Shown: positions 1-24,000, numbered from the stretch's first letter. The stretch: DNA of 24,000 bases from Reyranella sp. (GCF_004297265.1 NZ_SCUT01000030.1:95447-119446); one strand, 5' to 3'. The notes: generated by a model from the sequence alone, not told the origin. Numbers and translations are program-made.

Positions 1-1
1 G

Positions 2-947: not shown

Positions 948-967
948 CGTATCCGGGCCGTTTCGCG

Positions 968-1516: not shown

Positions 1517-3394
<1,878 letters not shown>

Positions 3395-3397
3395 ATC

Positions 3398-5797: not shown

Positions 5798-5811
5798 GTT
5801 TGGCCATCGCG

Positions 5812-6897: not shown

Positions 6898-6898
6898 C

Positions 6899-7351
6899 TC
6901 AAGCCTTCTTCTCCCAGCCGCCGGTGTCGGTCTGCTGCCAGTAGGCCACGGTGTGGCCCGCCCTCTTGTATTCCTTCCAGCGCTCGCGCGCATCGGCGAC
7001 CGCGGTGTCGTCCCGGCCGTCGAACAATTCGAAGCAGCGCTTGTAATCGCCGACCTTCCCGGACTTTGCCCGGTCGGCGACGAAGAGAAATGCGGCGCCG
7101 TTCGGATTCTCGTCCAAATGCGTCAGCCAGATGGGCTGGCGATCGGCCTCGCCATCGCGCGCGGCACCGTGCGGCAGGAAGCCGTTGGGATCGTAGACCC
7201 AGAGATGCGTGTTCAACGCGTCCACGCGCTCCGGCGATCCGAGCATCACCACCGCCCGCTCCCCCGCCTGCAATGTCTTGGTCAGCAGGCGTGGCAGCGT
7301 GTCTTCGAGTGACGATCGGGTCAGGTGGTAGAAGTTGACCTCGGTCGCCAT
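6899..7351 (-). CDS. holC: DNA polymerase III subunit chi
   Basis: 150 aa, N-terminus MATEVNFYHL with chi-like layout. It lies 7 nt downstream of pepA on the same strand, the classic pepA-holC pairing. Confidence 0.85.
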   Translation of the reverse strand: MATEVNFYHLTRSSLEDTLPRLLTKTLQAGERAVVMLGSPERVDALNTHLWVYDPNGFLPHGAARDGEADRQPIWLTHLDENPNGAAFLFVADRAKSGKVGDYKRCFELFDGRDDTAVADARERWKEYKRAGHTVAYWQQTDTGGWEKKA

Positions 7352-7358
7352 CGGCGGA

Positions 7359-8852: not shown

Positions 8853-9002
8853 CCACATCCCCTGCGCCTGGCGCCTCGTTTAATCCAATATTTCACCCCT
8901 GCGACGGGACCGCGCAAGCTGCGTTTGGCCGCCGCGCCCCTGCAAAATCGGAGTGGCATCCGGCCGCTGGCACCAGTATCAGTACCGGCCCTCAAAACGG
9001 AC

Positions 9003-10340
9003 ATGGAAATGACCTCAGCAACTCTGCCTCGCGTCTCGGTCGTCGGTCTCGGCAAGCTCGGTGCCCCTCTGGCCGCGGTTCTCGCCAGCCGCGGCTTCAA
9101 CGTGATCGGCCTCGACGTGAACAAGACGCTGGTCGACGCGATGAACGCCGGCAAGATGCCGATCGTCGAGCCGCAGCTCAACGAGCTGATCGCCGCCAAC
9201 AAGCAGCGTCTGTCGGCAACCATGGACGCCAACGAGGCGATCCAGAAGAGCGACGCCAGCTTCGTGATCGTCCCGACCCCGTCTGACAGCACCGGGTTCT
9301 TTTCCAACCGTTTCGTGCTCCAGGCCATGGAGACGCTCGGCAAGGCCCTGAAGAACAAGCAGGGCTATCATATGGTCGTCATCACCAGCACGGTGATGCC
9401 CGGCACGACCGGCACGGAGATCAAGGACGCCCTCGAGGCGGCCTCCGGCCGCAAGGTCGGGCCGGATCTCGGCCTCTGCTACAATCCGGAATTCATTGCG
9501 CTCGGCAGCGTCGTGCGCGACATGCTCTTCCCCGACTCGATTCTGATCGGCGAGAGCGATACCAAGGCCGGCGACATGCTGCAGACCATCTACCTGCAGA
9601 TGTGTGAAAAGAAGCCGCCGGTGCAGCGCATGAACTTCGTGAACGCCGAACTCACCAAGATTTCGGTCAACACCTACGTCACCACCAAGATCTCCTACGC
9701 CAACATGCTGGCCGACATCTGCGACCGCATCCCCGGCGCCGACGTTGACGCGGTGACCAAGGCGCTGGGCGCCGACACCCGCATCGGCGCGAAGTACCTC
9801 AAGGGCGCGATGGGCTACGGTGGCCCCTGCTTCCCGCGCGACAACGTGGCCTTCGCCGCCTTCGCCCGCAAGATCGGCGCCCGCGCCGATGTGGCCGAGG
9901 CGACTGACCGCATCAACAACTTCCAGGTGGAGCGTCTTTCCACCCTCGTTTCGAAGTTCGCGAAGGCGGGCACGCGCATCGCCATACTCGGCCTTTCCTA
10001 CAAGCCGCAGACGCCGGTGGTGGAAGAGAGCCACAGCGTGAAGCTCGCCGCCAAGCTTGCCGACGCGGGCTATGTCGTCACCGTGCACGATCCGCTGGCG
10101 CAGGATGCGGCGCTGGCCGTTCTGGGTGACAAAGTGGTCGGCGCCTCCTCGATCGAAGGCGCGGTCCGCGAATGCGACCTGCTGATCGTCGCGACCGGTT
10201 GGCCGCAATACAAGGAACTCGACCCGGCCTGGTGCAAGCGCAACGGCCAGCGCCTGACCGTACTGGACCTGTGGCGCACCCTCCCCGCCGATACGTTCGA
10301 GGAAGTCGCCGACCTCCTGTATCTCGGATCGGGCCGGTAG
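9003..10340 (+). CDS. Nucleotide-sugar dehydrogenase (UDP-glucose/GDP-mannose dehydrogenase family), substrate unknown
   Basis: Real start at ATG 9003 (or 9009) inside listed ORF 7335..10340; the upstream part is antisense to pepA. N-terminal Rossmann VSVVGLGKLGAPLA, NPEF motif, catalytic-Cys motif GYGGPCFPRDN and a C-terminal UDP-binding-type domain (ILGLSYKPQT). Confidence 0.85.
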   Translation: MEMTSATLPRVSVVGLGKLGAPLAAVLASRGFNVIGLDVNKTLVDAMNAGKMPIVEPQLNELIAANKQRLSATMDANEAIQKSDASFVIVPTPSDSTGFFSNRFVLQAMETLGKALKNKQGYHMVVITSTVMPGTTGTEIKDALEAASGRKVGPDLGLCYNPEFIALGSVVRDMLFPDSILIGESDTKAGDMLQTIYLQMCEKKPPVQRMNFVNAELTKISVNTYVTTKISYANMLADICDRIPGADVDAVTKALGADTRIGAKYLKGAMGYGGPCFPRDNVAFAAFARKIGARADVAEATDRINNFQVERLSTLVSKFAKAGTRIAILGLSYKPQTPVVEESHSVKLAAKLADAGYVVTVHDPLAQDAALAVLGDKVVGASSIEGAVRECDLLIVATGWPQYKELDPAWCKRNGQRLTVLDLWRTLPADTFEEVADLLYLGSGR

Positions 10341-10586: not shown

Positions 10587-12164
10587 TCAGATCGCGCGAC
10601 GTCCGCGGAAGCGGAGCACCTTGCCGCGCAGGCTCGGATCGACGCGCGGCAGGCCGGCAAGCACCTGGCTGCAGAACGGGTTGATGTTGGCCCCGACATA
10701 GTCGGTGAACAGCGGCCAGAACCGGTTGTAGATCACGTTCACGCCGACGAAGCGACGCGGGGTCCGCCGGCCCGGGGGCCGCGTTTCCGCCTCGGTCGAG
10801 GTCGCCTGCCTGAAGAGCTTCGTCACGACCTTGAGGCGCCTGGCGTCGAGCGGGCCGGCCTGCCGTCCGATCCGGATCGGCTCTTCCGGACTCTGCGTCG
10901 CCAGGCCGAACTCGAAGATGAACATCTCGGCCCGCGGGAGCAGATCCTCGAAGGCCCCCCTCTCCAGTCCTTCCAGATCCGACGGCAGCCCTTCGCACTC
11001 GTTCGGCACCAGGATCGGACCGGTGAAACCCATGGCCCGCCACGCCGTCAGGAACCGCTCGACGAACTCCTTGCGCGTTGCGACGATCATCACCGATGTC
11101 GAGCGCGGATAGGTCAGCATCTGATCGGCCACGAAGGGCAGCGTGTGGTCGATATCGTAGGTGAGATCGTCGTAGAGGAACCATTCGAGGCTCGTCGACG
11201 TGTACGGCACCTTGGCCGGCTTCAGCGCCGCATCGAGCCCTGCCGTGAAGCGCTGGTAGGACGTCTCGCGGTCGAGCCTCACTTCCTCGATCTCGACATC
11301 CGGCCAGCCCCAGTTATCGGCCTGCTCCGGCACATAGGGCGTCGACACGTTCCAGATGTACTGGTCCTGGTCGTTCATCCGCGTCTGCCGGCCCTTGTTG
11401 TTGGCGGCGGCGACGCGGGTGTGATCGCAGTGATACCCGAAGACCTTGTCGATCAGCGTGTCCACGCGTCCGCGATACAGGGCAAGGCGCGCGGCCAGGT
11501 TCGAATCGCAATGCCAGCCCAGCAGCATCGATTCGTCGAAGCCATGGATGGCGAACATGTCCTCGCGAAGCGCCGCCTGGAAATCACCCAGCGCGTCGTA
11601 CTTCATGGGCATGAAGTTATGGACGACCTGATTGAGATGGTAGCGGACCGACCAGTCCCGCAACTTCTCGAGATTGCCGGCGGGATCGCGGCGATCGAAG
11701 GCCGCCTCCCACAGCATCTCCGGCAACTCGAAGCGCGGGATCTGGTAGAAGCCGTCCGGCACAGAGCCCAGGATATCGCTGAGCGACTCGCCCGGGGTGC
11801 GCGAAACCAGAAGCATGTCGGTGTTGGTATAGAGGACCCACCGGTTCCTCGGATTCGACCGGCGCAGCGCCACGTTGCGCGACTGGGCTTCCAGCGCGAC
11901 CAGGTGGGTCTTCGACTTCAGATGCGCATGCTGCTCGGGGCGAATCCGCAGGATCCGGATGACCTTCTTGGCCTTCTCGGTCAGCGTGTCGTGGATCGCC
12001 TCGGGAAACGTCGGATGATCGTCGGGCGTGTTGTAGTCGACGAAGAGAATCTCGTCGTCCGGATCCGACATCACTTCGGCGAGGGCATTGAAGCTGATGG
12101 CCGCCCGCTTGTGCAGGTTGTAGCCGTGCGTGTCGTTGCGGCCGTAGATGATGACGGAAAACAT
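10587..12164 (-). CDS. Atypical GT-A-like glycosyltransferase domain (~250 aa) plus ~275-aa C-terminal region of unknown function
   Basis: ATG at 12162-12164 with a GAGG RBS. N-terminus MFSVIIYGRNDTHGYN resembles the GT2-type first strand. A single-Asp DXD-like site (YTNTDMLL) and a GT-A C-terminal motif (GDFQAALREDMFAIHGFDESMLLGWHCDSNLAARL, compare gWGgEDxdLxxRl). No TM segment. Function is inferred from motif resemblance only. Confidence 0.5.
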   Translation of the reverse strand: MFSVIIYGRNDTHGYNLHKRAAISFNALAEVMSDPDDEILFVDYNTPDDHPTFPEAIHDTLTEKAKKVIRILRIRPEQHAHLKSKTHLVALEAQSRNVALRRSNPRNRWVLYTNTDMLLVSRTPGESLSDILGSVPDGFYQIPRFELPEMLWEAAFDRRDPAGNLEKLRDWSVRYHLNQVVHNFMPMKYDALGDFQAALREDMFAIHGFDESMLLGWHCDSNLAARLALYRGRVDTLIDKVFGYHCDHTRVAAANNKGRQTRMNDQDQYIWNVSTPYVPEQADNWGWPDVEIEEVRLDRETSYQRFTAGLDAALKPAKVPYTSTSLEWFLYDDLTYDIDHTLPFVADQMLTYPRSTSVMIVATRKEFVERFLTAWRAMGFTGPILVPNECEGLPSDLEGLERGAFEDLLPRAEMFIFEFGLATQSPEEPIRIGRQAGPLDARRLKVVTKLFRQATSTEAETRPPGRRTPRRFVGVNVIYNRFWPLFTDYVGANINPFCSQVLAGLPRVDPSLRGKVLRFRGRRAI

Positions 12165-12189: not shown

Positions 12190-13323
12190 TCAGGAAGCGG
12201 AACGTGCCAGCTCGTTGCGGGCTGCAGCATACTCCACGAGCGTCGGGAGGCCGATGTCCACCACCTGCTGCCAATACGAACGGGCAGCGGACCGGTCCCT
12301 GCCATGGGCGGCGACGCCGAGCTGGAACAGCGCTTCGGCACGACGACCGGCGGTGTCGGCCCGGCCCAGCAGCTCTGATTCAGAAGCCGCTCCGGATTGC
12401 AAAGCCAGCAGCGACGCGACCCAGGAATCCCCGTCGACGATGCCGTCGGAGGACAGAGGCCGCCCAAGACGGAGCAACGCCGTGCGCAGGTACACCGTCC
12501 AGTAGGGATCACGCCTGTCGTTCCTCACCATCATCTCGAGATGGGGCAACGCGGCATCATAGTCGGCCAGGCGCAGGGCGACATAGGCGGCGGCGGAGGG
12601 ACGCCCTCCCAGCAGCCCGAGTTGCTGCCGCCAGTCGGCGTTCGCCTGGTCGATGTGCCCGAGCGCCATGTGCGCAATCCCCCGGGCATTCAAGGCTTCC
12701 GCGTCCTTCGCCCGCGCGGCGAGTACCCGGTCGAGGGCCTCGATGGCGGCCGCGTACTGGCCAAGCGCGGACAGGGCCTCGCCCTTCAGCGCGAGGGCGT
12801 CGAGCGAATTGGGATGAAGCTTCAGCGTGCGTTCATAGTCGGCCAGCGCAAGATCGGGCTGCCCGTCGGCAAGATAGGCATTCCCGCGCGCGAGGTGCGG
12901 CAGGGCAAATTTCTTGAGGGACTTCAGGACCCTCGTGTAGGCGACGATCTCGGCGGTGTGCGATCCCTGCTGGCGCAGGACGAAGTGCCGGTCGGGCGCC
13001 CCTGCCCGCCCCGCCTGCCTGAGCTTGCGGGCCTGCTCGTATCTCGCCGAAGCCGCAGCCGTGTCGCCGCTCATGTCGAGGGCCTCGCCTTCGGCCTCGA
13101 TCGCATCCGAAAAAGCAGGGGAGATTGCAATCGCCTGCCGAAGCAGACGGATGGCCGTCTCGGCGTCACCGGTGCGAAAAAGCGCGGTCGCCCGCAGGAA
13201 GAGATGTTCCGCTTCGCCGCCGTTGCTGCCCGCGACCCATTCGTCGGCCGATTGCCGTCGCCGCGTCCCCAGCACCTCTCGCAGGCTTCCCGACAAGCGC
13301 AACAACATCCCTGAGTTACTCAC
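12190..13323 (-). CDS. Tetratricopeptide-repeat (TPR) protein, soluble
   Basis: Repeated 34-aa TPR-like units (for example ARGNAYLADGQPDLALADYERTLKLHPNS, LALKGEALSALGQYAAAIEALDRVLAA, NARGIAHMALGHIDQANADW). GTG start at 13323 with an AGGAG RBS 7 nt upstream (alternative ATG at 13308). It ends 25 nt upstream of the 525-aa GT-like gene on the same strand. Confidence 0.8.
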   Translation of the reverse strand: MSNSGMLLRLSGSLREVLGTRRRQSADEWVAGSNGGEAEHLFLRATALFRTGDAETAIRLLRQAIAISPAFSDAIEAEGEALDMSGDTAAASARYEQARKLRQAGRAGAPDRHFVLRQQGSHTAEIVAYTRVLKSLKKFALPHLARGNAYLADGQPDLALADYERTLKLHPNSLDALALKGEALSALGQYAAAIEALDRVLAARAKDAEALNARGIAHMALGHIDQANADWRQQLGLLGGRPSAAAYVALRLADYDAALPHLEMMVRNDRRDPYWTVYLRTALLRLGRPLSSDGIVDGDSWVASLLALQSGAASESELLGRADTAGRRAEALFQLGVAAHGRDRSAARSYWQQVVDIGLPTLVEYAAARNELARSAS

Positions 13324-13601: not shown

Positions 13602-14666
13602 ATGAATGCCCCGCCCTATCTCAGCATCGTTGGCTGGGCACGGAACGACGGCTACACGCCGAATTACGCAAAACGCCTCGAACACTCCATAGGCTTTCTC
13701 GTCCGCCAGCTCGACAGGCACAGGATCCCCTCCGAGGTGATCGTCGTGGAATGGAACCCGCCGCCGGGGAGTCCTCTTCTCGCAGACCAGATGAATGGTT
13801 TCCTCGGCGGCACATCCCACGCCAGCGTGCGGTTCATCGTCGTGCCCCCGCAATTCCATCGTGGCCCGCGAGGCTGGCAGAAGCGCGGGATGCACGTGAA
13901 CAACGCGGCGAATGTCGGCTTCCGGCGGGCTCGGGGGCGCTTCGTGACGCCCAAAGCCCTGGATACCTTCTATTCGGACAAGCTCGTCTCGACGATCGGC
14001 CGGCTCGATCTCGACGACCGGCGCGTCTATCGCTGTGACAGGCTCGATGCACGCATGGAGGCCGAGTCCTGGCTCGACCTTGCGGATGACGAACTCCTGG
14101 CCGCGCTGGCACGGCATGTCGTCCTCAGGAACGGGCGGCTGACCCACAGCATCGACTGGAAGATGCGGGACCTTCACACGAATGCCTGCGGTGACTTCAT
14201 CCTCATGTCCACGCCGCGGTGGCACGAAATCCGTGGGTACCAGAAGGATCCGACGGTCCTCTGTCTGGATTCGGACTCGATCGCGCTCCATGCCGCGGCC
14301 GCGCATGGAGCGTCCGAGGTCCACTGGCAGGAAGAGTGCATCTACAAGGTGGTGCATGGAAACACCCACGCGCAACGCGTGGCCACGATCTGGAAGGACT
14401 GGCAACTCAAACTTGACCACTACCTGATCTTGCGCCACCGGCGGGAGCTGGCGATGAATCTCCGGGTGTGGCTCAACTATCCCCGCCGGCGCGTCCGTGG
14501 CCTGGAGGAGATTCTGGCTCCCTCGATCGAACGCCACTTCGTCGCCAAAGCCGCTCGATACGCGAAGAACGACACCTCCCTCGTCACGAACGATGCCGAC
14601 TGGGGCTTGGCCCGCGAGTCACTGTCCGATCGGACCGTGGTTCGCGCCGCCTGGGACACGCCATGA
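13602..14666 (+). CDS. Atypical GT-A-like glycosyltransferase, distant paralog of the 525-aa protein
   Basis: 354 aa. By eye it aligns with the N-terminal half of the 10587..12164 product: LSIVGWARNDGYTPNY vs SVIIYGRNDTHGYNL; VIVVEWNPPPG vs ILFVDYNTPDD; CGDFILMSTPRWHEIRGY vs LGDFQAALREDMFAIHGF; LCLDSDSIALHAA vs LGWHCDSNLAARL. The stop overlaps the next start (ATGA at 14663-14666). Confidence 0.5.
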   Translation: MNAPPYLSIVGWARNDGYTPNYAKRLEHSIGFLVRQLDRHRIPSEVIVVEWNPPPGSPLLADQMNGFLGGTSHASVRFIVVPPQFHRGPRGWQKRGMHVNNAANVGFRRARGRFVTPKALDTFYSDKLVSTIGRLDLDDRRVYRCDRLDARMEAESWLDLADDELLAALARHVVLRNGRLTHSIDWKMRDLHTNACGDFILMSTPRWHEIRGYQKDPTVLCLDSDSIALHAAAAHGASEVHWQEECIYKVVHGNTHAQRVATIWKDWQLKLDHYLILRHRRELAMNLRVWLNYPRRRVRGLEEILAPSIERHFVAKAARYAKNDTSLVTNDADWGLARESLSDRTVVRAAWDTP

Positions 14667-15880
14667 CCGTCCGGCAGGTCGTTTGCCTGGTCGGCGGTCG
14701 CGGGACCCGCCTCGGCCCGCTCACCCAGAACATGCCGAAGCCTCTTCTGGAGGTCGGCGGCCGCCCCTTCCTCGACTATCTGATCGACGAGGCAAACCGC
14801 TTCGGCCTCCAGCGACTGCTGCTGCTGGCCGGGCATAGTGCCGGCGAAGTCGTGCGGCACTATGCCGGCAAGGTCGTCGGCGGACTGTCGATCGACGTGA
14901 TCGTCGAAACGGCTCCCGCGGGGACTGCCGGTGCTCTGGCCAATGCCGCGGCCTCGCTCGATCCGACCTTCTTCCTGGCCAACGGCGATTCCTTCTTCGG
15001 CTTCAACTGGCTGTCCCTCGTGCCGGCGCTGGACCGGGACGACTGGACGGTCCATCTCGCGCTCGCGCGCGGCGTCCGGGGAGGACGCTACGGTCGCCTG
15101 GAAACCCGGGGCAATCGCATATCGAGGTTCCTGCCCAAGGCGGATAGCGACCTGCCGATAAATGCCGGCGTGTATCTCGTCCGGCGCCGGATCCTCGACC
15201 GGATCCGGGAAATCCCCTGCTCGCTCGAGGACGATATTCTTCCGCCTCTCGCCTCGGAAGGCGAACTCCTGGGAACCGCCGCGGAGGGCACATTCATCGA
15301 CATCGGTGTTCCCGACGATTTTGCGCGTTCACAGCAGGCCATGCCGGCCTTCACGCGCCGGCCGGCGGCCTTCCTCGACCGGGATGGCGTGATCAATCAC
15401 GACGACAATTATGTGCATCGGCCGGAGCAGATACGCTGGATCGACGGCGCGAAAGAGGCGGTCCGCTGGCTGAACGATACCGGATACTATGTGTTCGCCG
15501 TCACGAACCAGGCCGGAGTCGCGCGCGGCTACTATGGCGAGGACGCCGTAAACTCGCTCCATGCCTGGATGCAGGGCCAACTGCAGGCCGCCGGGGCACA
15601 CGTGGATTGCTTCGAGTACTGCCCCTATCACCCCGAGGGTACCGTCGAGCGATATCGACGGGTTTCCGAGATGCGCAAGCCGGGACCGGGGATGATCCTC
15701 AAGATCAGAAGAGAGTGGAACATCGACTGGGATCGATCATTCATGATCGGCGATCGCGACATCGACATGCAGGCGGCGGAGGCGGCCGGTATCGCCGGCT
15801 ACCGGTTCCCCGGCGGCAACCTCCTGGATTTCGTCAGGATGCACGCGCCGGCGAAACGAAGAAATCCCTCTTCGCGTTGA
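14663..15880 (+). CDS. Bifunctional sugar-1-phosphate nucleotidyltransferase (HddC/ManC-like) / D,D-heptose 1,7-bisphosphate phosphatase (GmhB-like, HAD-IIIA)
   Basis: ATG at 14663 inside listed ORF 14468..15880. The N-terminal domain has GGRGTRLGPLTQNMPKPLLEV (NTP_transferase). The C-terminal domain, from about nt 15355, matches GmhB motif for motif: FLDRDGVIN, VTNQAGVARG, YCPYHPEG, RKPGPGM, IGDRDIDMQAAEAAG. Confidence 0.8.
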   Translation: MTVRQVVCLVGGRGTRLGPLTQNMPKPLLEVGGRPFLDYLIDEANRFGLQRLLLLAGHSAGEVVRHYAGKVVGGLSIDVIVETAPAGTAGALANAAASLDPTFFLANGDSFFGFNWLSLVPALDRDDWTVHLALARGVRGGRYGRLETRGNRISRFLPKADSDLPINAGVYLVRRRILDRIREIPCSLEDDILPPLASEGELLGTAAEGTFIDIGVPDDFARSQQAMPAFTRRPAAFLDRDGVINHDDNYVHRPEQIRWIDGAKEAVRWLNDTGYYVFAVTNQAGVARGYYGEDAVNSLHAWMQGQLQAAGAHVDCFEYCPYHPEGTVERYRRVSEMRKPGPGMILKIRREWNIDWDRSFMIGDRDIDMQAAEAAGIAGYRFPGGNLLDFVRMHAPAKRRNPSSR

Positions 15881-16808
15881 TTTCCAGCACTCTTTCCACG
15901 ATTTCGGGGGGCAAGGGTCCCTGATCGCTCGCTGCGGCGTTCGTCTCGGCTTCCGCCGGGTGCAGCACGCCCGGAATGACGCTCGAGACGCCGTCGAACG
16001 AAAGGCAGAAGCGCAAGGCGCTCAGCACGGCCTCCCGTCCCGGTGTCGCCGAGACCGCCGATATCAGATCGCGCGCTCCATCGATCCAGTTGTCGAGCTG
16101 GACGCGCGACCACGCCGCCCGATGGTCACCGGCGGCGAAGGCGGTCGACCGGTCGATCGTACCCGTGAGGAAGCCAAAGCAAAGCGGCGTTCGAGCGATG
16201 AACGCCGCCCCCTGCCGAATGACTTCCTGAAGCAGTCCCTCCGTGACGACGCGAACATCCATCATGTTGAAGTTGGCCTGAACGATGGGCGCGCGGGCGA
16301 CACGCAGCGCTTCGACCGCCCCTCCCGGATTCTTCGCGGAGACGCCCCAGGCCCGGATTTTCCCCTCGGCTAGCAACGAGGCGATCACCTCCCTGGTCTC
16401 GTCCGCGGACAGAACGTCCGAAGGAGGATTGTGGAGCTGCAGGACGTCGAGATAATCCGTCCCCAGGCGCTTCAGGCTGAGTTCTGTCGAGCGCCTGATG
16501 GCGGCGGCCGAGAAATCCGCCGGCTTCGTCCAATCGTCGTAGCCGGCCTTGGTGGCGATCACGGCCTTGTCCCGCCCGCCCGCCACCGCCCTGCCGATCA
16601 GGACCTCGCTATGCCCTGAACCGTAGGCACTGGACGTGTCGAAGAAAGTGATCCCGAGGTCCAGCGCCCGTCGAAGCGCCGCCAGGGACTGGGCGTCATC
16701 CGTATCGCCGTACGAGGTTGCACCGGCCGTTCTGCCACCGATCCCCCAGGCACCGAATCCGACCTCCGAGACCAGAATTCCGGTCTCGCCCAGCTTACGA
16801 TATTTCAT
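15834..16808 (-). CDS. Aldo/keto reductase
   Basis: Internal ATG at 16806-16808 gives MKYRKLGETGILVSEVGFGAW. The AKR tetrad context is present (DTSSAYG, IATK, LQLHNP). It starts 14 nt after the radical SAM stop with a GAGG RBS. The 3' end overlaps the convergent gene by 47 nt. Confidence 0.9.
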   Translation of the reverse strand: MKYRKLGETGILVSEVGFGAWGIGGRTAGATSYGDTDDAQSLAALRRALDLGITFFDTSSAYGSGHSEVLIGRAVAGGRDKAVIATKAGYDDWTKPADFSAAAIRRSTELSLKRLGTDYLDVLQLHNPPSDVLSADETREVIASLLAEGKIRAWGVSAKNPGGAVEALRVARAPIVQANFNMMDVRVVTEGLLQEVIRQGAAFIARTPLCFGFLTGTIDRSTAFAAGDHRAAWSRVQLDNWIDGARDLISAVSATPGREAVLSALRFCLSFDGVSSVIPGVLHPAEAETNAAASDQGPLPPEIVERVLEINAKRDFFVSPARAS

Positions 16809-16822: not shown

Positions 16823-18853
16823 TCAGTAGTGTCCGGCCAGCTCGGGCGTGATCTCGACGGCGCGCGGCGAATAGAGATAGGCGCCCTTCTTGTTGCCCCA
16901 CCAGACGATCTCCCGGCACCACTTCTGGAAGTCGTCGTAGGGCCGGCTCGTGCGGTCGATTTCCACGACGATCGGCACCTTGCGCAGCAGCGCCGGCTCG
17001 CCGCCGCGCACCTTGTTCCAGTAGTCCAGCAGATCGTAGTTGAGCTTCACCTTCACATTGCCCCGGACGAAGGGCTGGTGGACCAACGCATGGTTCAGCT
17101 TAATGGCCTCTTCGACGACCTCGATGGGAAGGCCCGAGCTTCGCGCCTGCACGGTCTCGGACAGCAGCTCGCCGGCTTCGCGGTAGAAGTCGTCGAACTT
17201 CCCGTCGGCCGTCAGCCTGACGAAGATGTACTCGTCTGCCGGCCAGAAGATATTGAGGTATTCCTTCGAGAAGACGTACTCGGAACCACCCTGCTGGATG
17301 GACCGGGCCTCGCTCTCGAAAAAGTCGTTGATCCAGGCGATCGTCGGAAACCGCTTCGCGTCGGCGGCCATGAAGGCCTCGATCATGTCGCGGTAGGAAA
17401 TGCCGGATATACCGTGCGCCAGGATGAGCGGGATCTGGAACAGCTTGTCGAAATGCAGCAGCGCCGTCATCCAGCAGAAGGTGCGCGTGCGGCGCCAGTC
17501 GTCGAGCGGCGTCGCCGCGGTGGCGATGACCAGGTCCTGGACTTCCGGCACATCGTCGTCGAGCTCGATGCGCTCGCCGTGGATGTTGATGATCTTCGAT
17601 TCCACGGTAACCATGCCGTACTTGGCCTGGTAGGCGGGATCGCCCATCTCCGCGTTCGGCAGAATCGACAGGTTGTTGAACTGGATGCGGTTGTGCTGGC
17701 CGTTCTCCATCAGCTGATCGACACCGCGCACGAAGGACTCGTAGGTCTCACCGGGCAGGCCCAGGATCAGGTCCGAGTAGGTCTCGACCTTGTCGCGCGT
17801 GAATCGGCGCTGGAGTTCCATGTAGGTACCGAGCGAGATGTTGTCGCGCTTGATCGCCTCCAGCGTCGGCATGTCGACGCTCTGCATCGACAGGGCGACA
17901 CCCTTGTTCAGGCCGGCGTCGGACAGGATCTTCTGGGTCTCATAGGCCCGTTCCGTGGCGTTCTTGGTGTTCTGGACCGAGAGCGCCACCGGAAAGCCGG
18001 TCTTCGTCTTCACGTCGGCGACGTAGTTGGCGATGTCGACGTCGCGCTTCTGGATGCCGAAGTTGGCATCGCAGCAGAAGATGTACTCGATCTTCTTCTC
18101 GGCGAACCAATCGACCTCGCGATAGAGCCGCTCTTCACCGAACTTGGTGACCTTGCCGGCCGTGGCCGACCCCCAGTCGCAGAAGGTGCAGCGGAACGGG
18201 CAACCGCGGTTGGTTTCCCACAGGCCGATCCAGCTTTCCGTCCGGTTGGCCGCCATGATCTCGTCAAAGGCGCCTTCGAGGAAGGGCGAAGGAATTTCGT
18301 CGAGGTCGCGCACGCGGTCGAGATTCTTGGTGCGGACGAAGCTGCCGTCGGGCTTCACCATGCTGATGCCGGGAATGGCGTCCCAGGTGCTCCGATCGTG
18401 AAATGTCTCCAGGAGCTTCAGGAAAGTCCGCTCGCCCTCATTGTGGACGGCGAGATCGATCTGGCGATTGGCCCGCATGAAGGACTCGGGCTGGTCGGGT
18501 ACGTGCGGCCCACCGAAGATGATGACGATGCCCGGCTTCAACGCCTTCAGGCGACGGGCGATCTCGAGCGAGATCCGGCCGTTCCACACATAGGTGCTGA
18601 AGCCGACGATGTCGGCATCCTTCAGGGCCTCGACCGCATCGGCGATGCGCACGCGCTTGTAGAGCGGCGGCAGGAACCGGTAGAGCTCGGGCTCGGCTGC
18701 AAACTTCTTCACGTAGGTCTGCAGCAACGCGACCGAATATGGCAGATAGTTCTGGCCGGAGAAGGAGTTGTTGATCTGAACCAGGCCGACGACCAAGGCC
18801 CCCGCTCGGGGCGTGGCTTGCGTAGCGGCTTCTGCGGCGTGGGGCGTCGACAT
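16823..18853 (-). CDS. B12-binding-domain radical SAM enzyme (class B-like) with ~255-aa C-terminal extension
   Basis: CxxxCxxC cluster motif in WETNRGCPFRCTFCDWGS (C218/C222/C225 counted from the 18853 start). N-terminal Rossmann-like B12-binding-type domain (ALVVGLVQIN...ADIVGFSTYVW...IIFGGPHV). Start set at ATG 18853 because the 31 upstream codons of the listed ORF are rich in rare A/T-ending codons (tta, cta, caa, tct, aga). Confidence 0.85.
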   Translation of the reverse strand: MSTPHAAEAATQATPRAGALVVGLVQINNSFSGQNYLPYSVALLQTYVKKFAAEPELYRFLPPLYKRVRIADAVEALKDADIVGFSTYVWNGRISLEIARRLKALKPGIVIIFGGPHVPDQPESFMRANRQIDLAVHNEGERTFLKLLETFHDRSTWDAIPGISMVKPDGSFVRTKNLDRVRDLDEIPSPFLEGAFDEIMAANRTESWIGLWETNRGCPFRCTFCDWGSATAGKVTKFGEERLYREVDWFAEKKIEYIFCCDANFGIQKRDVDIANYVADVKTKTGFPVALSVQNTKNATERAYETQKILSDAGLNKGVALSMQSVDMPTLEAIKRDNISLGTYMELQRRFTRDKVETYSDLILGLPGETYESFVRGVDQLMENGQHNRIQFNNLSILPNAEMGDPAYQAKYGMVTVESKIINIHGERIELDDDVPEVQDLVIATAATPLDDWRRTRTFCWMTALLHFDKLFQIPLILAHGISGISYRDMIEAFMAADAKRFPTIAWINDFFESEARSIQQGGSEYVFSKEYLNIFWPADEYIFVRLTADGKFDDFYREAGELLSETVQARSSGLPIEVVEEAIKLNHALVHQPFVRGNVKVKLNYDLLDYWNKVRGGEPALLRKVPIVVEIDRTSRPYDDFQKWCREIVWWGNKKGAYLYSPRAVEITPELAGHY

Positions 18854-18982
18854 TCGCTGCGCTCTGTGTCCGGTCTTCTTGGCGGAAGACGAAGAGGTAG
18901 AGCGCCACTCTTCGCATTGCAATAGGATTGACTGCCATAATCCCATGGTTCAGCAGGGATTTTTCGGTGTCCTGAGGCGAAA

Positions 18983-19960
18983 ATGCAGTTTGCGGGCAAA
19001 AAGATTCTGATCACCGGCGGGGCCGGATTCCTGGGAACCAACCTGGCTCTGAAATTGACGGCCCTCGGCGCCAGACTGCGTCTCACGATGCATCGGAAGC
19101 CTCTTCAGGTCGCGTTCCCTGACGCCGAACTCGTGCAAGCCGACCTGCGACGCCCCGAGGATTGCGCCCGCGTCGTCGAAGGAATGGACGTCGTCTTCAT
19201 CTGCTCGGCACAGACTTCCGGCGCGGGCGTCATCCGCACCACTCCCCTGGTGCATGTCACGCCCAACGTGCTGATCAACAGCCTCCTCCTCGAAGCCGCC
19301 TACCAGGCGCAGGTGAAGAAGGTGTGCTTCATTTCGAGCGGCGCCGCCTATCCGGGGACGGGCGCGCGGCCCGTGACGGAAGCGGAGATGTTCAACGGCG
19401 ATCCGGAGGAGGTCTATTTTCCCGCCGGCTGGATGAAGCGCTACGCCGAGATCCTCTGCCGGACCTATGCCGAGAAGATCGCGAATCCGATGCCCACCGT
19501 GGTCATCCGCCCCTCCAACGTCTACGGCCCCTACGACAAGTTCGACTTTGCCGTGAGCCACGTCACGGCCGCGCTGGTGCGGCGGGTCGCCGAACGGCAG
19601 ACGCCGCTCCAAGTGTGGGGCACCGGCGACGACATCCGGGACCTGATCTACATCGACGATTTCGTCGAGGGCACCCTTGCCGCCGTCGCGACGGACCGGC
19701 CGTTCCTGGCCATCAACATCTGCGCCGGCCAAGGCTATGCCGTCCGGCAGGTCCTCGAAACGCTGCTGGACGTCGATGCATTCCACGACGCCCAAGTGAC
19801 GTTCGATGCCTCGAAACCCAGCACGGTTCCCGTGCGCCTGATGGACAATGGTCTCGCCCGCTCGCTGCTCGGCTTCGAGGCGAAGCTATCCCTGGCGGAA
19901 GGCCTCCGGCGAACCCTGGCCTGGTACAGGAGCGACCCGGCCAGCCCGGCGCGCCGCTAG
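18983..19960 (+). CDS. Extended SDR, GDP-L-fucose synthase (Fcl/GMER)-like, non-canonical active site
   Basis: ATG 18983 with a GAGG RBS. GGAGFLG Rossmann motif. Strong Fcl-like blocks: IRPSNVYGPYDKFDFAVSHVTAALVRR, QVWGTGDDIRDLIYIDD, FDASKPSTVPVRLMD. The YxxxK region reads PAGWMKRY, so Tyr is replaced. Confidence 0.85.
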   Translation: MQFAGKKILITGGAGFLGTNLALKLTALGARLRLTMHRKPLQVAFPDAELVQADLRRPEDCARVVEGMDVVFICSAQTSGAGVIRTTPLVHVTPNVLINSLLLEAAYQAQVKKVCFISSGAAYPGTGARPVTEAEMFNGDPEEVYFPAGWMKRYAEILCRTYAEKIANPMPTVVIRPSNVYGPYDKFDFAVSHVTAALVRRVAERQTPLQVWGTGDDIRDLIYIDDFVEGTLAAVATDRPFLAINICAGQGYAVRQVLETLLDVDAFHDAQVTFDASKPSTVPVRLMDNGLARSLLGFEAKLSLAEGLRRTLAWYRSDPASPARR

Positions 19961-21051
19961 AACGGGCCCCTGAAGCGCTTGTAGCCTTCGGTCATCGATC
20001 GCTCGACCGGAAGCTCGATGCCGTGGCGGCTGCCACAAACCTGCGTCAGGATTGCTTCCACGGTCTCGTGCTGGCTCGGGTAGTAGATGTCCTCGAGGCT
20101 CTTCGCCGTCGGGCAAGGTGCCGCGGCCATGCCGAGCATCGCTGGCGCCTGCCGCAACATCGCCGGATCCCGCATCATGACCTGACGGCAGACCTCGCCA
20201 GCCACGCCATACTCGAGCCAGGACGTATCAGCGATGACCAGACGGCCCGTCTTGCGGATGCTGCCGATCACCAGCTCCCAATCCGGGTGACTGATGGAGT
20301 TGAGATCGATGACTTCGACCTCGATGCCTGCCTTCTCGGCAACGTACTGGGCCGCGCGCAACGCCTCGAGCACCATCACCGACGTCGCCACGACCGTCAC
20401 GTCGCGCCCTTCGCGGGCCACGTAGCTGGTGAGCGGGATCGGCTTCGCCGGCGTCCCGGCGGAAACGGAGAAGTCCAGGTTGTAGAGGAGCCGGTGCTCG
20501 ATGCTCACCACCGGGCCCGGATGCCGGACGATGATCTGCGGATACATGTCCACGATCGCCTGGCTGGTCGACGGCATGACGACCGTCAGGCCGGGATAAT
20601 GGGCGAACGTCGCCTGCGGGCTCTGCGAATGCTGGGCGCCCTGCCCCCAGCTGCGCCCGACGACGAGGCGGATCAGCATGGGGCACGACATGATGCCGCC
20701 GAACATGTAGCGGTACTTCGAGGCCAGGTTGACGATCTGGTTCATCGCCAGGAACGAGAAGTCGGCGCGGATGTGCGTTGTGATCGGATAGTCGCCGACC
20801 AACGCCGCACCGATCGCCACGCCCGTCATGCCTTCTTCCATCAACGGAACGTCGAACACGCGCTGGGCGCCGTACTTCTGCGCGAGGCCGGTGGTCGAGC
20901 CGAAGATGCCCTTAAAGTCGTCGACGCCCTGGCCCATGATGAAGACGTTCGGATGGTCGGCCAGCGCCGAGTCCATCGTCTCCAGCAGCGCACCGGCATA
21001 GGACAGGACGCGCGTCTGTGTCGACGGACGCTCTTTCGAAGAGACGTTCAT
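19957..21051 (-). CDS. TPP-dependent 2-oxoacid dehydrogenase E1 component, beta subunit-like (Transket_pyr + Transketolase_C)
   Basis: 364 aa with FDVPLMEEGMTGVAIGAALVG (pyrimidine-binding domain) and a C-terminal transketolase-C-like domain (GRDVTVVATSVMVLEALRAA...IEVEVIDL). ATG at 21049-21051, 14 nt after the alpha-subunit stop. Confidence 0.85.
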   Translation of the reverse strand: MNVSSKERPSTQTRVLSYAGALLETMDSALADHPNVFIMGQGVDDFKGIFGSTTGLAQKYGAQRVFDVPLMEEGMTGVAIGAALVGDYPITTHIRADFSFLAMNQIVNLASKYRYMFGGIMSCPMLIRLVVGRSWGQGAQHSQSPQATFAHYPGLTVVMPSTSQAIVDMYPQIIVRHPGPVVSIEHRLLYNLDFSVSAGTPAKPIPLTSYVAREGRDVTVVATSVMVLEALRAAQYVAEKAGIEVEVIDLNSISHPDWELVIGSIRKTGRLVIADTSWLEYGVAGEVCRQVMMRDPAMLRQAPAMLGMAAAPCPTAKSLEDIYYPSQHETVEAILTQVCGSRHGIELPVERSMTEGYKRFRGPF

Positions 21052-21065
21052 GCTTCAAGCCCTGT

Positions 21066-21992
21066 CTAGATGATGTCGGTCAGCAGTTCATCGCGCCCCG
21101 GGAAGGGGCTTGTCTCGGCGAACTCGGCGGCTGCCGCGATCTCCCGATCGATCTCCGGCTTGAGCTCGGCAACGAGCTTCTCGTCGAGCAGCAGCGGATC
21201 GCGCGCCTTCCAGGCGTCGATGTCGGTCGCGTTGCGATACCCGAAATGGAAATCGTCGCCGACGCCGACATGCTCCTTGTAGCGCCCGGTTGCGATCTCG
21301 AGGACGAAGGGGCGGCCTGCCCGTACGACGGACAACGCATCCAGCGTGGCCTGCCGGATCGCCAGCATGTCCCAACCCTCGTCCAGCCGTCGCGCTTCGA
21401 TGCCGAAGGTCTTGGCGTGTTCGAGCAGATTGTAGGATTGCCGGGCGTTCTTGAAACTGTGCACGGCGAGCCCGTTATCCTCGCACAGGAACAGGACCGG
21501 CACCTTCATGAGTGCCGCGAAGTTCAGGCTCTCGTGGTAGACGCCCTCCTCGGTCGCACCGTCGCCGAACACCGCGACGGCCACGCGCGAGCTGCCCCGG
21601 CGCTTGAACGAGAGCGCCGCGCCGACGGCGTGGGGAATGGAACTGGCGACGACGGCGGAGGAGCCCATCAGCCCGACTTCCGGCGCCGACAGGTGCATCG
21701 AGCCAGCCTTTCCCTTGGAGACGCCGCCGACGCGGCCATAGAGTTCCGCGAACATCTTGGGCAGCGAGCCGCCCTTGGCGATGTAGAAGCCATGCGAGCG
21801 ATAGGTCGCAAACACGAGATCGTCGACGTTCAAGGCGTCGCAAACCCCGACGGCTACGGCTTCCTGGCCGATCGACAGATGAACGGGGCTTTGGATCCTG
21901 TCGGAGGGGTAGAGCTCGATGATGCGCTCTTCGACCAGCCTGATCGTCAGCGCTGTCCGGAAAAGTCGGCGGTAGCGCTCGTCGCTGTCCAT
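21066..21992 (-). CDS. TPP-dependent 2-oxoacid dehydrogenase E1 component, alpha subunit-like
   Basis: E1_dh-like: ELYPSDRIQSPVHLSIGQEA, YRSHG, and the TPP motif GDGATEEG-x-CEDNG (GDG...N spacing ~27). The listed ORF begins at a TTG (21995); the adjacent ATG at 21990-21992 is the more likely start. Confidence 0.85.
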   Translation of the reverse strand: MDSDERYRRLFRTALTIRLVEERIIELYPSDRIQSPVHLSIGQEAVAVGVCDALNVDDLVFATYRSHGFYIAKGGSLPKMFAELYGRVGGVSKGKAGSMHLSAPEVGLMGSSAVVASSIPHAVGAALSFKRRGSSRVAVAVFGDGATEEGVYHESLNFAALMKVPVLFLCEDNGLAVHSFKNARQSYNLLEHAKTFGIEARRLDEGWDMLAIRQATLDALSVVRAGRPFVLEIATGRYKEHVGVGDDFHFGYRNATDIDAWKARDPLLLDEKLVAELKPEIDREIAAAAEFAETSPFPGRDELLTDII

Positions 21993-22067
21993 CAAACTAC
22001 ATTCCCCAAGCCTGAAAGTCGGCCATTCCGGCCGCCGGTGCCGCCTCTCCTAGCGATACACCTGCAA

Positions 22068-23018
22068 CTATTCAACATTCCGGTTGGCCCGATACCAGGC
22101 GAGCAGTTCGGTCAGTCCGTCCTGAACCGACGTTGCCGGACGCCAACCCGTGGCTTCCATGAACCGGCGCCCAGAAACGCGCAGCATCGCAGGGCCCAGA
22201 TTCTGGCCTTCCAGTTCGACCTCCGCATCGCCAAAGCCGTCGGCGTCGAGCAGCGCCTCCAGGATCGACCGGACCGAGACTTCGTCCGGAGTTGCCACGT
22301 TGAAAGCCCGGAAGCCCCGTTCGTCGGGCCGGCAGACCGCTTTCACGGCCGCGGCCAGATCGCGGGCGTGGATCAGGTTTCGCGTCTGGGTACCATCTCC
22401 GGCCAGCCGGATCGGCCGGGTGCGCTCGACCACCCGTCGGACGAGCGACGGCAGGAAGTGGCCTGTTCGCGGGTCGAAGTCGTCGTGCGGACCGTAGACG
22501 AGGGTCGGTCTCAGGACGATGGCGGAGTCCAGCCAACCCAGCGTCCTGACATACCATTCGAGCTGTTTTTCCAGGTAGCGGTGCATCCACCCCACCCCGA
22601 ACCAGTGCCCCGGTGGATTGCCGGACTCGTATTGCTCCTCCTCCAGCAACTCCGTGGCGGGCGGATAGCCCGTGCAGGAGCTGACGAGCACGACATGCCT
22701 CGCGTCGCCTCGTGCCGCGGCTTCCAGGGCATTGGTGACGATACGCAGGTTGTCGAGTACCGACTCCACCGGCTCCTCCCGCAGCACGGCACTGGTGGAG
22801 ACCCGGCCGGCGCACAGGACGACCGTGTTGCAGCCGGCGAAAGCGCGCGACGCCTGGGCCCGATCGTTGAAATCGCACTGGACCCACTGGATGCCTTCGG
22901 CGGCAAAGGGCCGGCGCGACCTGTAGGTCGCAACCACGGGCTCTCCCGTCGGGCCAGCGAGCACCTCGACGACGTGCCTTCCGATCAGGCCCGTCGCACC
23001 CGCCACTGCGATCGTCAT
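22068..23018 (-). CDS. Extended SDR, Fcl/GMER-like paralog, non-canonical active site
   Basis: MTIAVAGATGLIG Rossmann motif at ATG 23016-23018 (GAAGGA upstream; alternative ATG at 23039). Fcl-like blocks VSSCTGYP, LRPTLVYGPHDDFDPRTGHFLPSLVRR, GDGTQTRNLIHARD. The YxxxK region reads GVGWMHRY, so Tyr and Lys are both replaced. Confidence 0.8.
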   Translation of the reverse strand: MTIAVAGATGLIGRHVVEVLAGPTGEPVVATYRSRRPFAAEGIQWVQCDFNDRAQASRAFAGCNTVVLCAGRVSTSAVLREEPVESVLDNLRIVTNALEAAARGDARHVVLVSSCTGYPPATELLEEEQYESGNPPGHWFGVGWMHRYLEKQLEWYVRTLGWLDSAIVLRPTLVYGPHDDFDPRTGHFLPSLVRRVVERTRPIRLAGDGTQTRNLIHARDLAAAVKAVCRPDERGFRAFNVATPDEVSVRSILEALLDADGFGDAEVELEGQNLGPAMLRVSGRRFMEATGWRPATSVQDGLTELLAWYRANRNVE

Positions 23019-23150
23019 CGTCCTTCGGTCTCCCCTCATCTGCTTGCCGCGTCGACCGTAACCGCCGGCCGGCAGATTGTCGCATAGTTCGGTCGACCGG
23101 GCCGTTGGACGTGCTAAGGAACGCGCGCAAACGGACGAGTTGACGGGAAA

Positions 23151-24000
23151 ATGGGAATGTCGCCGCAGCAGCGCCTTGGACAGAAAGAATTCGAAGTCGC
23201 GGTCGGGATCCCGGCGGGAAGCCTGGACGAGCGCACCAAGGCGCTCCTGGAGAAGACCCCGCTGCTGTTTTCAGCCCTCGACGACCAAGCCCAGGCGGCC
23301 GCGCGCGCGAACGTGGCCGAGGACATCGACCGCGGTTTCACGGTCGTCGGCGAGCATCGCGCCTCCATCTGGCGCGACGCGTGGCAAGATCACCTGGACG
23401 ATTTCATCGGGTCCGGACACGCGCTGGAAGCGCTCAATCCGCGGTTCGTGGGCGGCACCGTCCTCCTGCGCTGGCAGGGCGCCTATATCGAGGGTGTCAC
23501 CGAGCGCTTCGAGCTGGCCTTCCTCGAGATCTTCCGCGACTGGCTGTTCCGGACCTATCTTGCGGATGCGTCGCATCTCTACGAGTTCGGCAGCGGCAGC
23601 GCCTTCAACGTCGCAGCCTATGCGAAACTCTATCCACAGACCTCGATCACCGCGCTCGACTGGGCACCCGCTGCGGTGAAGATCGCCGACCTGCTGGGCG
23701 AGCGGCATGGCATGAAGATCTCCGGCCGGCGGTTCGATTTCTTCGCCCCGGAAAGCGGTTTCGAGTTCGCTCCTAACAGCAGCGTGCTGACCATGTGTGC
23801 GCTGGAACAGGTGGGCGACAGGTTCCAGCCGTTCCTGGATTTCCTCCTCGCAAAGCGCCCGCAGCGAGTGGTGCATGTGGAGCCCATGCTGGAACTCTAC
23901 GATCCGGATCTGCCGCACGACGCCCTGGCCATCCGGTATCACCAGCAGCGCAAGTACCTCAGCGGGCTCCTGCCTCATCTGCGCTCGCTCGAGAAGGCCG
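23151..24000 (+). CDS. Class I SAM-dependent methyltransferase (putative), 3' end beyond window; not in the supplied ORF track
   Basis: My own translation from ATG 23151 (in-frame stop TAA at 23115) is open to nt 24000: MGMSPQQRLGQKEFEVAVGIP...HLYEFGSGSAFNVAAYAKLYPQTSITALDWAP...VLTMCALEQV.... It has a motif I-like EFGSGSAFN, G/C-rich third codon positions and ordinary amino-acid composition. The listed competing ORFs (23077..23679 +, 23271..23978 -) are Arg/Ser/Pro-rich or antisense. Confidence 0.6.
   Translation, partial: MGMSPQQRLGQKEFEVAVGIPAGSLDERTKALLEKTPLLFSALDDQAQAAARANVAEDIDRGFTVVGEHRASIWRDAWQDHLDDFIGSGHALEALNPRFVGGTVLLRWQGAYIEGVTERFELAFLEIFRDWLFRTYLADASHLYEFGSGSAFNVAAYAKLYPQTSITALDWAPAAVKIADLLGERHGMKISGRRFDFFAPESGFEFAPNSSVLTMCALEQVGDRFQPFLDFLLAKRPQRVVHVEPMLELYDPDLPHDALAIRYHQQRKYLSGLLPHLRSLEKA

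Follow-up and report, generated by a model that had tools for sequence, protein, structure and literature searches.

A stand-alone E1 alpha/beta pair in a Reyranella glycan locus as candidate two-carbon branching enzyme of nucleotide-sugar tailoring

The stretch of 24,000 nucleotides of Reyranella sp. that was analysed (GCF_004297265.1, NZ_SCUT01000030.1:95447-119446; 'the window') encodes two adjacent proteins that are related to the alpha and beta subunits of the E1 component of 2-oxo-acid dehydrogenase complexes. We consider it probable that this pair is a stand-alone alpha2beta2-type thiamine diphosphate (ThDP) enzyme, which works outside these complexes as a carboligase in nucleotide-sugar tailoring. 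A first-pass annotation, made from the sequence alone, had proposed that the pair forms a sugar with a two-carbon branch. The proposal gained support from the fact that the alpha subunit falls in one clade with TxnB3 and a protein that matches KstD7, and from the published knockout of txnB4 (PMC5659172).

The arrangement described in that annotation, with adjacent E1 alpha-like and beta-like genes 14 nt apart, a ThDP motif and a co-oriented short-chain dehydrogenase/reductase (SDR) gene upstream, was borne out by the coordinates of the open reading frames (ORFs) and the Pfam matches (Table 1). The alpha ORF was initially listed as 21066-21995 on the minus strand, starting with TTG, although the ATG at 21992 is the likely true start; exactly 14 nt lie between its stop codon (TAG, 21066-21068) and the ATG of the beta gene (21051). 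The ThDP motif of the alpha subunit, GDGATEEGVYHESLNFAALMKVPVLFLCEDNG, is of the GDG...EDNG type, and alignment to human pyruvate dehydrogenase (PDH) E1 made clear that the activator Glu of the beta subunit (PLMEEG) and the active-site His pair (alpha His241 in KEHV and beta His141 in QHSQ) have been kept. In the PDB, the pair is matched best by human PDH E1 alpha and beta. The family assignments reflect strong homology, with chance excluded. The intact ThDP motif, activator Glu and His pair are common to complex and stand-alone E1s, and hence do not discriminate between the two. The window has a G+C content of ~65%, and its nearest protein relatives (77-96% identity) come from Reyranella, Enhydrobacter and other Reyranellaceae. 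An Rfam search of the window recovered nothing.

Both subunits stayed below the equivalog cut-offs for PDH: the alpha subunit scored 244 bits against TIGR03182 (PDH E1 alpha, cut-off 394) and the beta subunit 230 bits against NF006667 (PDH E1 beta, cut-off 321). With the models for transketolase and 1-deoxy-D-xylulose 5-phosphate (DXP) synthase (DXS), the matches were no more than short and weak, at 23-46 bits where the cut-offs are 466-575. No E2 or E3 was found in the window, where each large ORF fell to another family in the Pfam/NCBIfam assignment, nor in the 10 kb past its right end, as read from a 95%-identical contig (L001) that stands in for the sequence up to 10 kb beyond that edge. 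Likewise, tblastn with a genuine E2 yielded no match at E<=1 in the window, in L001 or in a locus of a closely related Reyranellaceae genome (L004). The first-pass observation that no lipoyl-domain E2 or E3 is encoded in the window was confirmed; partner genes just beyond the window were lacking in the L001 flank, and a tight grouping with the PDH E1s was not seen, the equivalog cut-offs being missed.

Further evidence comes from the comparison with relatives in a sample of 80 loci of named genomes, which were fetched from an alignment of E1 alpha relatives and in which the ORFs were clustered and the recurrent families annotated. When only true E2s with lipoyl, E3-binding and catalytic domains were counted, an E2 was present in none of the 33 loci within the clade of the window protein and in 33 of the 48 loci outside it (Fisher p = 3e-11). 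Flanks with at least two families of sugar-nucleotide genes were seen in 15 of the 21 loci within the clade, versus 0 of the 30 outside. In the alpha tree, built like the others by neighbour-joining with a simple distance correction, the E2-less group with sugar context was split from all E2-linked sequences with a bootstrap value of 91/100. The window alpha subunit thus groups with the E2-less E1s of sugar clusters and apart from the E2-linked ones. Once TxnB3 and the proteins of Micromonospora okii, a Streptomyces rochei plasmid and Azospirillum were included, the split was recovered in 55/60 replicates, with all four on the E2-less side.

The clade is spread over the Alpha- and Gammaproteobacteria, Planctomycetota, Brocadiaceae, Omnitrophota, Rokubacteria, Cyanobacteria, Pelagibacter, Elusimicrobia, Legionellaceae and Verrucomicrobia, and the synteny with nucleotide-sugar genes, mostly of the heptose pathway, extends over more than ten phyla. 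The families that recur in the close loci are extended SDRs (20 loci), DegT-family enzymes (11), HldE-like kinase/adenylyltransferases (10), GHMP kinases that are 50-60% identical to the L001 kinase of this locus (8), GmhA-like SIS isomerases (8), SPASM radical S-adenosylmethionine (SAM) enzymes (7), B12 radical SAM enzymes (7), glycosyltransferases of family GT2 (6) and fusions of a nucleoside triphosphate (NTP)-transferase domain with GmhB (5).

The separation of the clade is mirrored in specific sequence signatures (numbered as in the window proteins). Position 184 of the alpha subunit is Arg in 94% of the clade members and in 0% of the others. Around the catalytic His the motif H241-x-G243 (H-V-G in the window) is invariant within the clade and is followed by a three-residue insertion with D247; this remodelled loop aligns with phosphorylation loop A of human E1 alpha. 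At position 162 a Trp that is common among complex E1s has been lost. The beta signature consists of H93, R95, R133, W135 and Q137, which flank segments whose counterparts in human E1 beta include Met81, Phe85 and His128. In addition, 26 of the 38 clade members, and none of the 48 E2-linked proteins, carry a C-terminal extension of the beta subunit of 23-40 residues that ends in F-x-G-P-[FY], as in KRFRGPF of the window protein, EFHGPY of M. okii and GPY of a Streptomyces griseofuscus plasmid pair (L085). The beta C-terminus is the E2-binding site in the E1 of Geobacillus, and the tail is therefore consistent with a loss of E2 docking. The window pair thus has the fold, the ThDP motif, the activator Glu and both active-site His residues in common with the E1s of PDH, branched-chain 2-oxo-acid dehydrogenase and acetoin complexes, but differs from these in the missing E2/E3, the sub-cut-off scores, the remodelled alpha His241 loop, the substitutions close to the active site of the beta subunit, the C-terminal tail and the separate clade. 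Among the best representatives of clusters at 50% identity, R184 and G243 were both present in at least 103 of the 139 that span the two positions, and 17 of the signature-bearing representatives are natural alpha-beta fusions of 568-713 amino acids (P0123, P0126, P0135 and 14 others). By this count the clade is large, and its members are annotated everywhere as pyruvate dehydrogenase E1.

A search with the Streptomyces alpha subunit connected the clade to known branching enzymes, as it retrieved both TxnB3, from the cluster for trioxacarcin, and an E1 alpha from M. okii, the producer of kosinostatin. The latter matches KstD7, and together with its partner KstD7/D8; its gene lies between that of a nucleoside diphosphate (NDP)-hexose 2,3-dehydratase and that of E1 beta, with an EryCIII-type glycosyltransferase gene and an RmlC-like gene near. 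The window alpha subunit is 43-46% identical to TxnB3 and the M. okii, S. rochei and Azospirillum proteins, and alpha R184, the H-x-G motif, the beta signatures and the GP[FY] tail are common to the window pair and the TxnB3/M. okii-type relatives. TxnB3/B4 have been listed as homologues of KstD7/D8 and have been proposed to join a pyruvate-derived two-carbon chain to a 4-keto sugar, like in avilamycin; deletion of txnB4, which encodes the beta subunit, led to loss of the gamma-branched octose (PMC5659172). They belong to a series of 'pyruvate dehydrogenase-like' two-component enzymes (TxnB3/TxnB4, KstD7/KstD8, AviB1/AviB2, Pau11/Pau12 = Plm8/Plm9 and EvdU5/EvdS3), of which TxnB3 and the KstD7-matching protein served as sequence proxies, AviB1/B2 and Pau11/12, like AlmDI/DII, being likened to the window pair by description.

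Like in the trioxacarcin and kosinostatin type, the E1 alpha and beta genes of the window are adjacent, without E2/E3, and lie among genes for an NDP-sugar 4,6-dehydratase and a 3,5-epimerase, and like in paulomycin there is an aldo/keto reductase (AKR) partner. The differences from the actinomycete systems (trioxacarcin, kosinostatin, avilamycin, paulomycin and everninomicin) concern the host, a Gram-negative alphaproteobacterium of the Reyranella group; the setting, a surface-glycan locus in place of an antibiotic cluster; the activation genes, which are of the guanosine diphosphate (GDP)-heptose type (GHMP kinase and GmhB fusion) and do not include a dTDP-glucose synthase; and the partners, a B12 radical SAM enzyme and SDRs that lack the catalytic Tyr. 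The reaction proposed here is the same as that of YerE (yersiniose), ErwE (erwiniose) and MyGE (mycobacterial branched sugars), through which Gram-negative and mycobacterial glycans are known to obtain such branches: a 2-oxo acid is decarboxylated, the remainder is added to the keto group at C-4 of an NDP-deoxysugar, and ketoreduction follows (PMC9306805). Nevertheless, these are single-chain flavoproteins similar to acetohydroxyacid synthase (AHAS), with a fold unrelated to that of the split E1 alpha/beta of the window, and an AHAS-like single polypeptide (TPP_enzyme_N/M/C, as in YerE) was encountered in no annotated ORF of the window or L001.

In the reaction that we propose for the window pair, ThDP, activated by the conserved beta Glu, would decarboxylate a 2-oxo acid, most likely pyruvate, and the hydroxyethylidene-ThDP carbanion, instead of being handed to a lipoyl group, would attack the keto carbon of an NDP-4-keto-6-deoxy sugar that is made by the 4,6-dehydratase and RmlC-like epimerase of the locus itself. 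The product would be a 4-C-acetyl tertiary alcohol. The acetyl branch could then be reduced to 1-hydroxyethyl by the AKR, as in paulomycin, where the 4-C-acetyl branch of paulomycose is likewise reduced by an AKR, Pau7 (PMC4753412). A C-methyl group would probably come from the B12 radical SAM enzyme, and the final sugar would go into a surface polysaccharide. Decarboxylation and addition to the C-4 keto group after the 4,6-dehydratase and 3,5-epimerase steps is also the order that was proposed for trioxacarcinose (PMC5659172). In the window system, we infer pyruvate as donor, C-4 as the site, a heptose as scaffold and the order of the steps.

The first-pass annotation had assigned the reduction of the ketone to the AKR together with the SDRs. 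Whereas the part of the AKR agrees with the precedent of Pau7, the part of the SDRs calls for a correction. When aligned to E. coli GMER, the SDR at 18983-19960 reads PAGWMK where P-Y-x-x-x-K is expected, with Ala at the positions of both Tyr136 and Cys109, and with Lys140 and His179 kept; the SDR at 22068-23039 reads GVGWMH at the YxxxK position, with Val for the catalytic Tyr and His for the Lys. Reduction of the ketone by these proteins is doubtful, considering that both are without the canonical catalytic Tyr and one is also without the Lys, and on these grounds they may not be simple ketoreductases. The 'GW.K' variant was seen only in the closest loci (L004, L005, L006 and L028).

In Campylobacter and Yersinia, the pathways to GDP-D-glycero-alpha-D-manno-heptose and GDP-6-deoxyheptose employ GmhA, HddA, GmhB, HddC, DmhA, a C3/C5 epimerase and a C4 reductase. 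The locus resembles these pathways in having an HddA-like kinase, a GmhB domain, a guanylyltransferase-like domain, a Gmd-like 4,6-dehydratase, an RmlC-like epimerase and Fcl-like SDRs. It differs in that all scores are below the equivalog cut-offs, GmhA is missing from the locus and the Fcl-like SDRs lack the catalytic Tyr, while the GDP-heptose pathway has nothing that corresponds to the E1 pair, the radical SAM enzyme or the AKR. The GmhB domain, which is fused to a nucleotidyltransferase, scored 153 bits against NF006506 (cut-off 178) and 139 bits against TIGR00213 (cut-off 150), with the motifs DRDGV and YCPYHPEG present; the nucleotidyltransferase domain scored 81 bits as HddC (cut-off 300) and 114 bits as mannose-1-phosphate guanylyltransferase. 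The GHMP kinase in L001 is HddA-like (125 bits, cut-off 600), and in that contig the genes for the Gmd-like 4,6-dehydratase (174 bits with the Gmd model) and the RmlC-like protein (141.5 bits) are located 2-5 kb beyond the edge of the window. In L006, the ortholog of the kinase is translationally coupled to the gene for a GmhA-like isomerase (183 bits, cut-off 209). Given the near-cut-off score and kept motifs of the GmhB domain, the HddA-like kinase and the coupling to a GmhA-like isomerase in L006, we take a GDP-activated heptose derivative to be the probable scaffold, though with all heptose-gene scores below the equivalog level this is something that we infer.

Several points weigh against a sugar-branching role, or restrict it. 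The beta subunits gave the corresponding split in only 35/60 replicates, and this after a post hoc correction of the set for two mislabelled sequences (0/50 with the first set definition), so that the support from the beta tree is weak; all trees are neighbour-joining trees and have no likelihood basis. At 43%, the identity of the window alpha subunit to TxnB3 and the KstD7-matching protein is low, the heptose assignment leans on the sub-threshold hidden Markov model scores given above for HddA and HddC (125/600 and 81/300) in a locus without GmhA, and the literature offers no in vitro reconstitution for any E1-type branching enzyme, the role still being called hypothesised in 2023 (PMC10338323). 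In many loci of the clade the E1 is accompanied by a DegT-family or SPASM radical SAM enzyme in place of a 4,6-dehydratase, and the acceptor may for that reason differ between loci. Finally, the clade signatures are also borne by a pair in a context that is not related to sugars, on plasmid pSGRIFU1 of S. griseofuscus (L085:14019-19549). Here the E1 pair, of which S. rochei has the same proteins, adjoins a 1103-amino-acid protein with a condensation domain, an acyl carrier protein (ACP), a phosphopantetheinyl transferase (PPTase) and ketosynthases, and sugar genes are absent; the condensation domain may take the role of the E2 catalytic domain. Because this pair carries its signatures, the clade is best called E2-independent and not strictly sugar-branching. 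The idea that the clade-specific Arg residues bind the nucleotide was weakened by the presence of the same residues in the Streptomyces pair, and the signatures appear to mark independence of E2 rather than nucleotide-sugar binding.

Four other explanations were considered. That the pair belongs as a regular E1 to a dehydrogenase complex for pyruvate, acetoin or branched-chain 2-oxo acids, with E2 and E3 encoded elsewhere and a coincidental sugar context, is hardly credible: PDH E1 alpha and beta do rank first in both PDB and NCBIfam, and every catalytic residue for decarboxylation is in place, but the scores are well under the equivalog cut-offs (244 vs 394 and 230 vs 321), E2 is absent from all 33 clade loci and present in 33 of the 48 outside, the beta tail, of 25-30 residues, is missing from all 48 E2-linked proteins, and the synteny with sugar genes persists across phyla. 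The pair could also hand an acyl or hydroxyalkyl group to something other than a sugar, for example a carrier protein or amine, with the group ending as a substituent of the glycan. The Streptomyces plasmid pair may do something similar, E1 alpha and beta with full clade signatures being encoded there together with the condensation-domain protein, ACP, PPTase and ketosynthase. However, neither the window nor L001 encodes a carrier protein, condensation domain or acyltransferase, and we regard this explanation as very improbable.

The two remaining alternatives keep the pair within sugar metabolism. It could act as a non-oxidative decarboxylase on a sugar-derived 2-oxo acid, for instance an NDP-heptos-6-ulosonic or uronic keto acid, yielding an aldehyde that is then aminated or reduced without any carbon being added. 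E1 chemistry indeed starts with decarboxylation, a nucleotide-sugar 6-dehydrogenase is encoded both in the window and at three further loci of the clade, and in seven clade loci E1 beta is directly followed by a DegT-family gene. Set against this are the sole genetic data on clade members, which indicate carbon addition, the provision of a 4-keto sugar by the 4,6-dehydratase of the locus, and the lack of an identified enzyme in the locus that would make the sugar 2-oxo acid, so that we hold it to be unlikely. An action similar to that of DXP synthase or transketolase, before nucleotide activation, with the resulting sugar-phosphate skeleton being activated by the GHMP kinase, GmhB domain and nucleotidyltransferase, is in our opinion improbable. 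It would fit the weak similarity to DXS and transketolase, the 50-60% identical GHMP kinase with which the closest E1 subclade always travels, and the methylthioadenosine (MTA) phosphorylase and methylthioribose-1-phosphate isomerase (MtnA) that adjoin the module of Azospirillum. The clade loci, however, already hold a full route from sedoheptulose-7-phosphate (GmhA-like SIS isomerase plus HldE, or the set of kinase, GmhB and transferase), which makes the E1 an extra tailoring step, and the actinomycete relatives act on NDP-sugars.

Returning to two-carbon branching, the literature that was consulted knows E1-type enzymes in this role only from actinomycete antibiotic clusters, and biochemically as a hypothesis (PMC4753412, PMC10338323, PMC5659172), and names only YerE-type enzymes for the C-acyl-branched sugars of Gram-negative and mycobacterial glycans (PMC4753412, PMC9306805). 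On the basis of phylogeny and anatomy, the locus belongs to the known E1 kind, in a new setting, with a Gram-negative host, a surface glycan, heptose-type activation genes and a radical SAM partner. Together with at least 30 syntenic loci in other phyla, it suggests widespread use of the E1 route in surface glycans of the environment, in association with heptose nucleotide sugars. The pair is a soluble, non-actinomycete candidate for a first in vitro proof of the E1 branching reaction, and alpha R184 and H-x-G, beta H93/R95/R133/W135/Q137 and the F-x-G-P-[FY] tail can be used as markers to tell stand-alone from complex E1s in annotation.

The locus also points to unknown higher-carbon sugars. 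More tentatively, and with considerable doubt, one may envisage the E2-less E1 clade as a module for the tailoring of heptoses that has gone unrecognised although it is widespread, ranging from Alphaproteobacteria to Planctomycetota, Omnitrophota, Elusimicrobia, Cyanobacteria and Pelagibacter. At the present locus this module would add two carbons derived from pyruvate to a GDP-4-keto-6-deoxyheptose and, in concert with the AKR and the B12 radical SAM enzyme, lead to an undescribed branched C9-C10 sugar, a Gram-negative counterpart of the gamma-branched octoses of actinomycetes that is made without YerE. A search of the literature for a link between heptoses and ThDP enzymes or E1s found nothing relevant. 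The C9-C10 sugar might be carbocyclic in the style of caryose or bradyrhizose, with an acetyl carbon bonded to C-4. A link with bradyrhizose itself is speculation only, as the paper on its putative 11-gene operon names no ThDP enzyme and the peptides encoded by the gdh primers, compared by eye, are absent from the dehydratase of the locus. A lead according to which the O-antigen region of Coxiella burnetii contains E1 alpha/beta genes was unsupported in papers on Coxiella lipopolysaccharide and was dropped.

The loci of relatives show several variations in organization. In a Magnetospirillaceae genome (L005), the genes for E1 alpha and beta come immediately after that for a dehydratase that is 79% identical and are followed by one for a Wzy_C-like membrane protein; in addition, this locus encodes another split ThDP pair of much smaller size (L005:1217-3852; an E1_dh-like protein of 207 and a Transket_pyr-like protein of 188 amino acids), followed by a SPASM radical SAM gene. 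The Reyranellaceae metagenome-assembled genome with a 79%-identical alpha subunit carries two tandem E1 alpha/beta pairs with a classical SDR between them (L004:6979-12017), an arrangement which suggests two successive ThDP-dependent steps in this relative. The DegT-family protein encoded after E1 beta in L006 (11978-13159) scores best as RfbH, with 195 bits and below the cut-off. RfbH is the 3-dehydrase of the 3,6-dideoxyhexose pathway that depends on pyridoxamine 5'-phosphate, and its likeness to the L006 protein hints at a yersiniose-like logic and not at amination. Tblastn of plasmids revealed a module of NTP-transferase-GmhB fusion, SDR, E1 alpha, E1 beta and DegT on plasmid AZO_p6 of Azospirillum lipoferum 4B, a cultured bacterium (L084:10826-19677); besides MTA phosphorylase and MtnA, its neighbours include sulfotransferases, a GT41 glycosyltransferase and a WavE-family gene. 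The plasmid search also yielded the S. griseofuscus pair described above.

Table 1. Coordinates of the E1 pair and of the surrounding genes in the window
Feature	Coordinates	Strand	Remarks
Nucleotide-sugar 6-dehydrogenase (UDP-glucose dehydrogenase family)	9009..10340	+	TIGR03026 350 bits; left edge of glycan locus
Conserved 525-aa protein	10587..12164	-	No Pfam/NCBIfam match; GT-A-like by eye
Tetratricopeptide (TPR)-repeat protein	12190..13323	-	Multiple TPR Pfam families
Conserved 354-aa protein, possibly glycosyltransferase	13602..14666	+	No Pfam/NCBIfam match; GT-A-like by eye
Fusion of sugar-1-phosphate nucleotidyltransferase and GmhB-type heptose-1,7-bisphosphate phosphatase	14663..15880	+	405 aa; NTP_transferase + HAD
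AKR, candidate reducer of branch ketone	15834..16808	-	324 aa; PF00248 171 bits
B12-binding radical SAM enzyme, KedN5-family C-methyltransferase-like	16823..18946	-	PF02310 + PF04055; NF033712 292 bits (cut-off 700)
Second Fcl-like extended SDR	18983..19960	+	PF01370 142 bits; convergent with E1 beta, ends overlap 4 nt
E1 beta-like subunit	19957..21051	-	364 aa; Transket_pyr (PF02779) 87 bits + Transketolase_C (PF02780) 70 bits
E1 alpha-like ThDP-binding subunit	21066..21992	-	308 aa from ATG 21992; PF00676 (E1_dh) 169 bits, E 1e-49
Extended SDR, GDP-fucose-synthase-like	22068..23039	-	PF01370 132 bits; Fcl model 85 bits (cut-off 500); 75 nt upstream of E1 alpha start, co-oriented
Conserved 310-aa protein, 5' part, truncated by window end	23157..24000	+	tblastn 90% identity to L001:7945-8877; no Pfam/NCBIfam match

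The right two-thirds of the window form a glycan locus, and the family matches across this part agree with the earlier description of the pair as embedded among sugar-nucleotide enzymes (Table 1). Homologues of the nucleotide-sugar 6-dehydrogenase also occur in the clade loci L010, L018 and L027. The 354-amino-acid protein is 94% identical to its copy in L001 and 45% to that in L004. The genes for the nucleotidyltransferase-GmhB fusion and the AKR are convergent, with an overlap of 47 nt between their 3' ends, and the GmhB domain has S-E-M at the position of the zinc-site C-x-C of E. coli GmhB. The gene for the B12 radical SAM enzyme probably starts near 18853, as relatives of the protein are called as 676 amino acids (gene call in L001). 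The gene of the 310-amino-acid protein, in which a G-x-G-x-G motif like that of class I methyltransferases was recognized by eye, is divergent from the SDR-E1 operon. Past the window edge, L001 continues with a hypothetical gene and genes for the 4,6-dehydratase, the GHMP kinase, the RmlC-like epimerase, an AGE-family protein and an FkbM methyltransferase, after which the glycan genes give way to the housekeeping genes surA, pdxA and rsmA. On the other side, positions 1-9000 of the window are of a housekeeping nature and unrelated to the glycan locus, with ndk and genes for an ABC-F ATPase, a major facilitator superfamily (MFS) transporter, a cyclase-family protein, a weakly FkbM-like protein and leucyl aminopeptidase.

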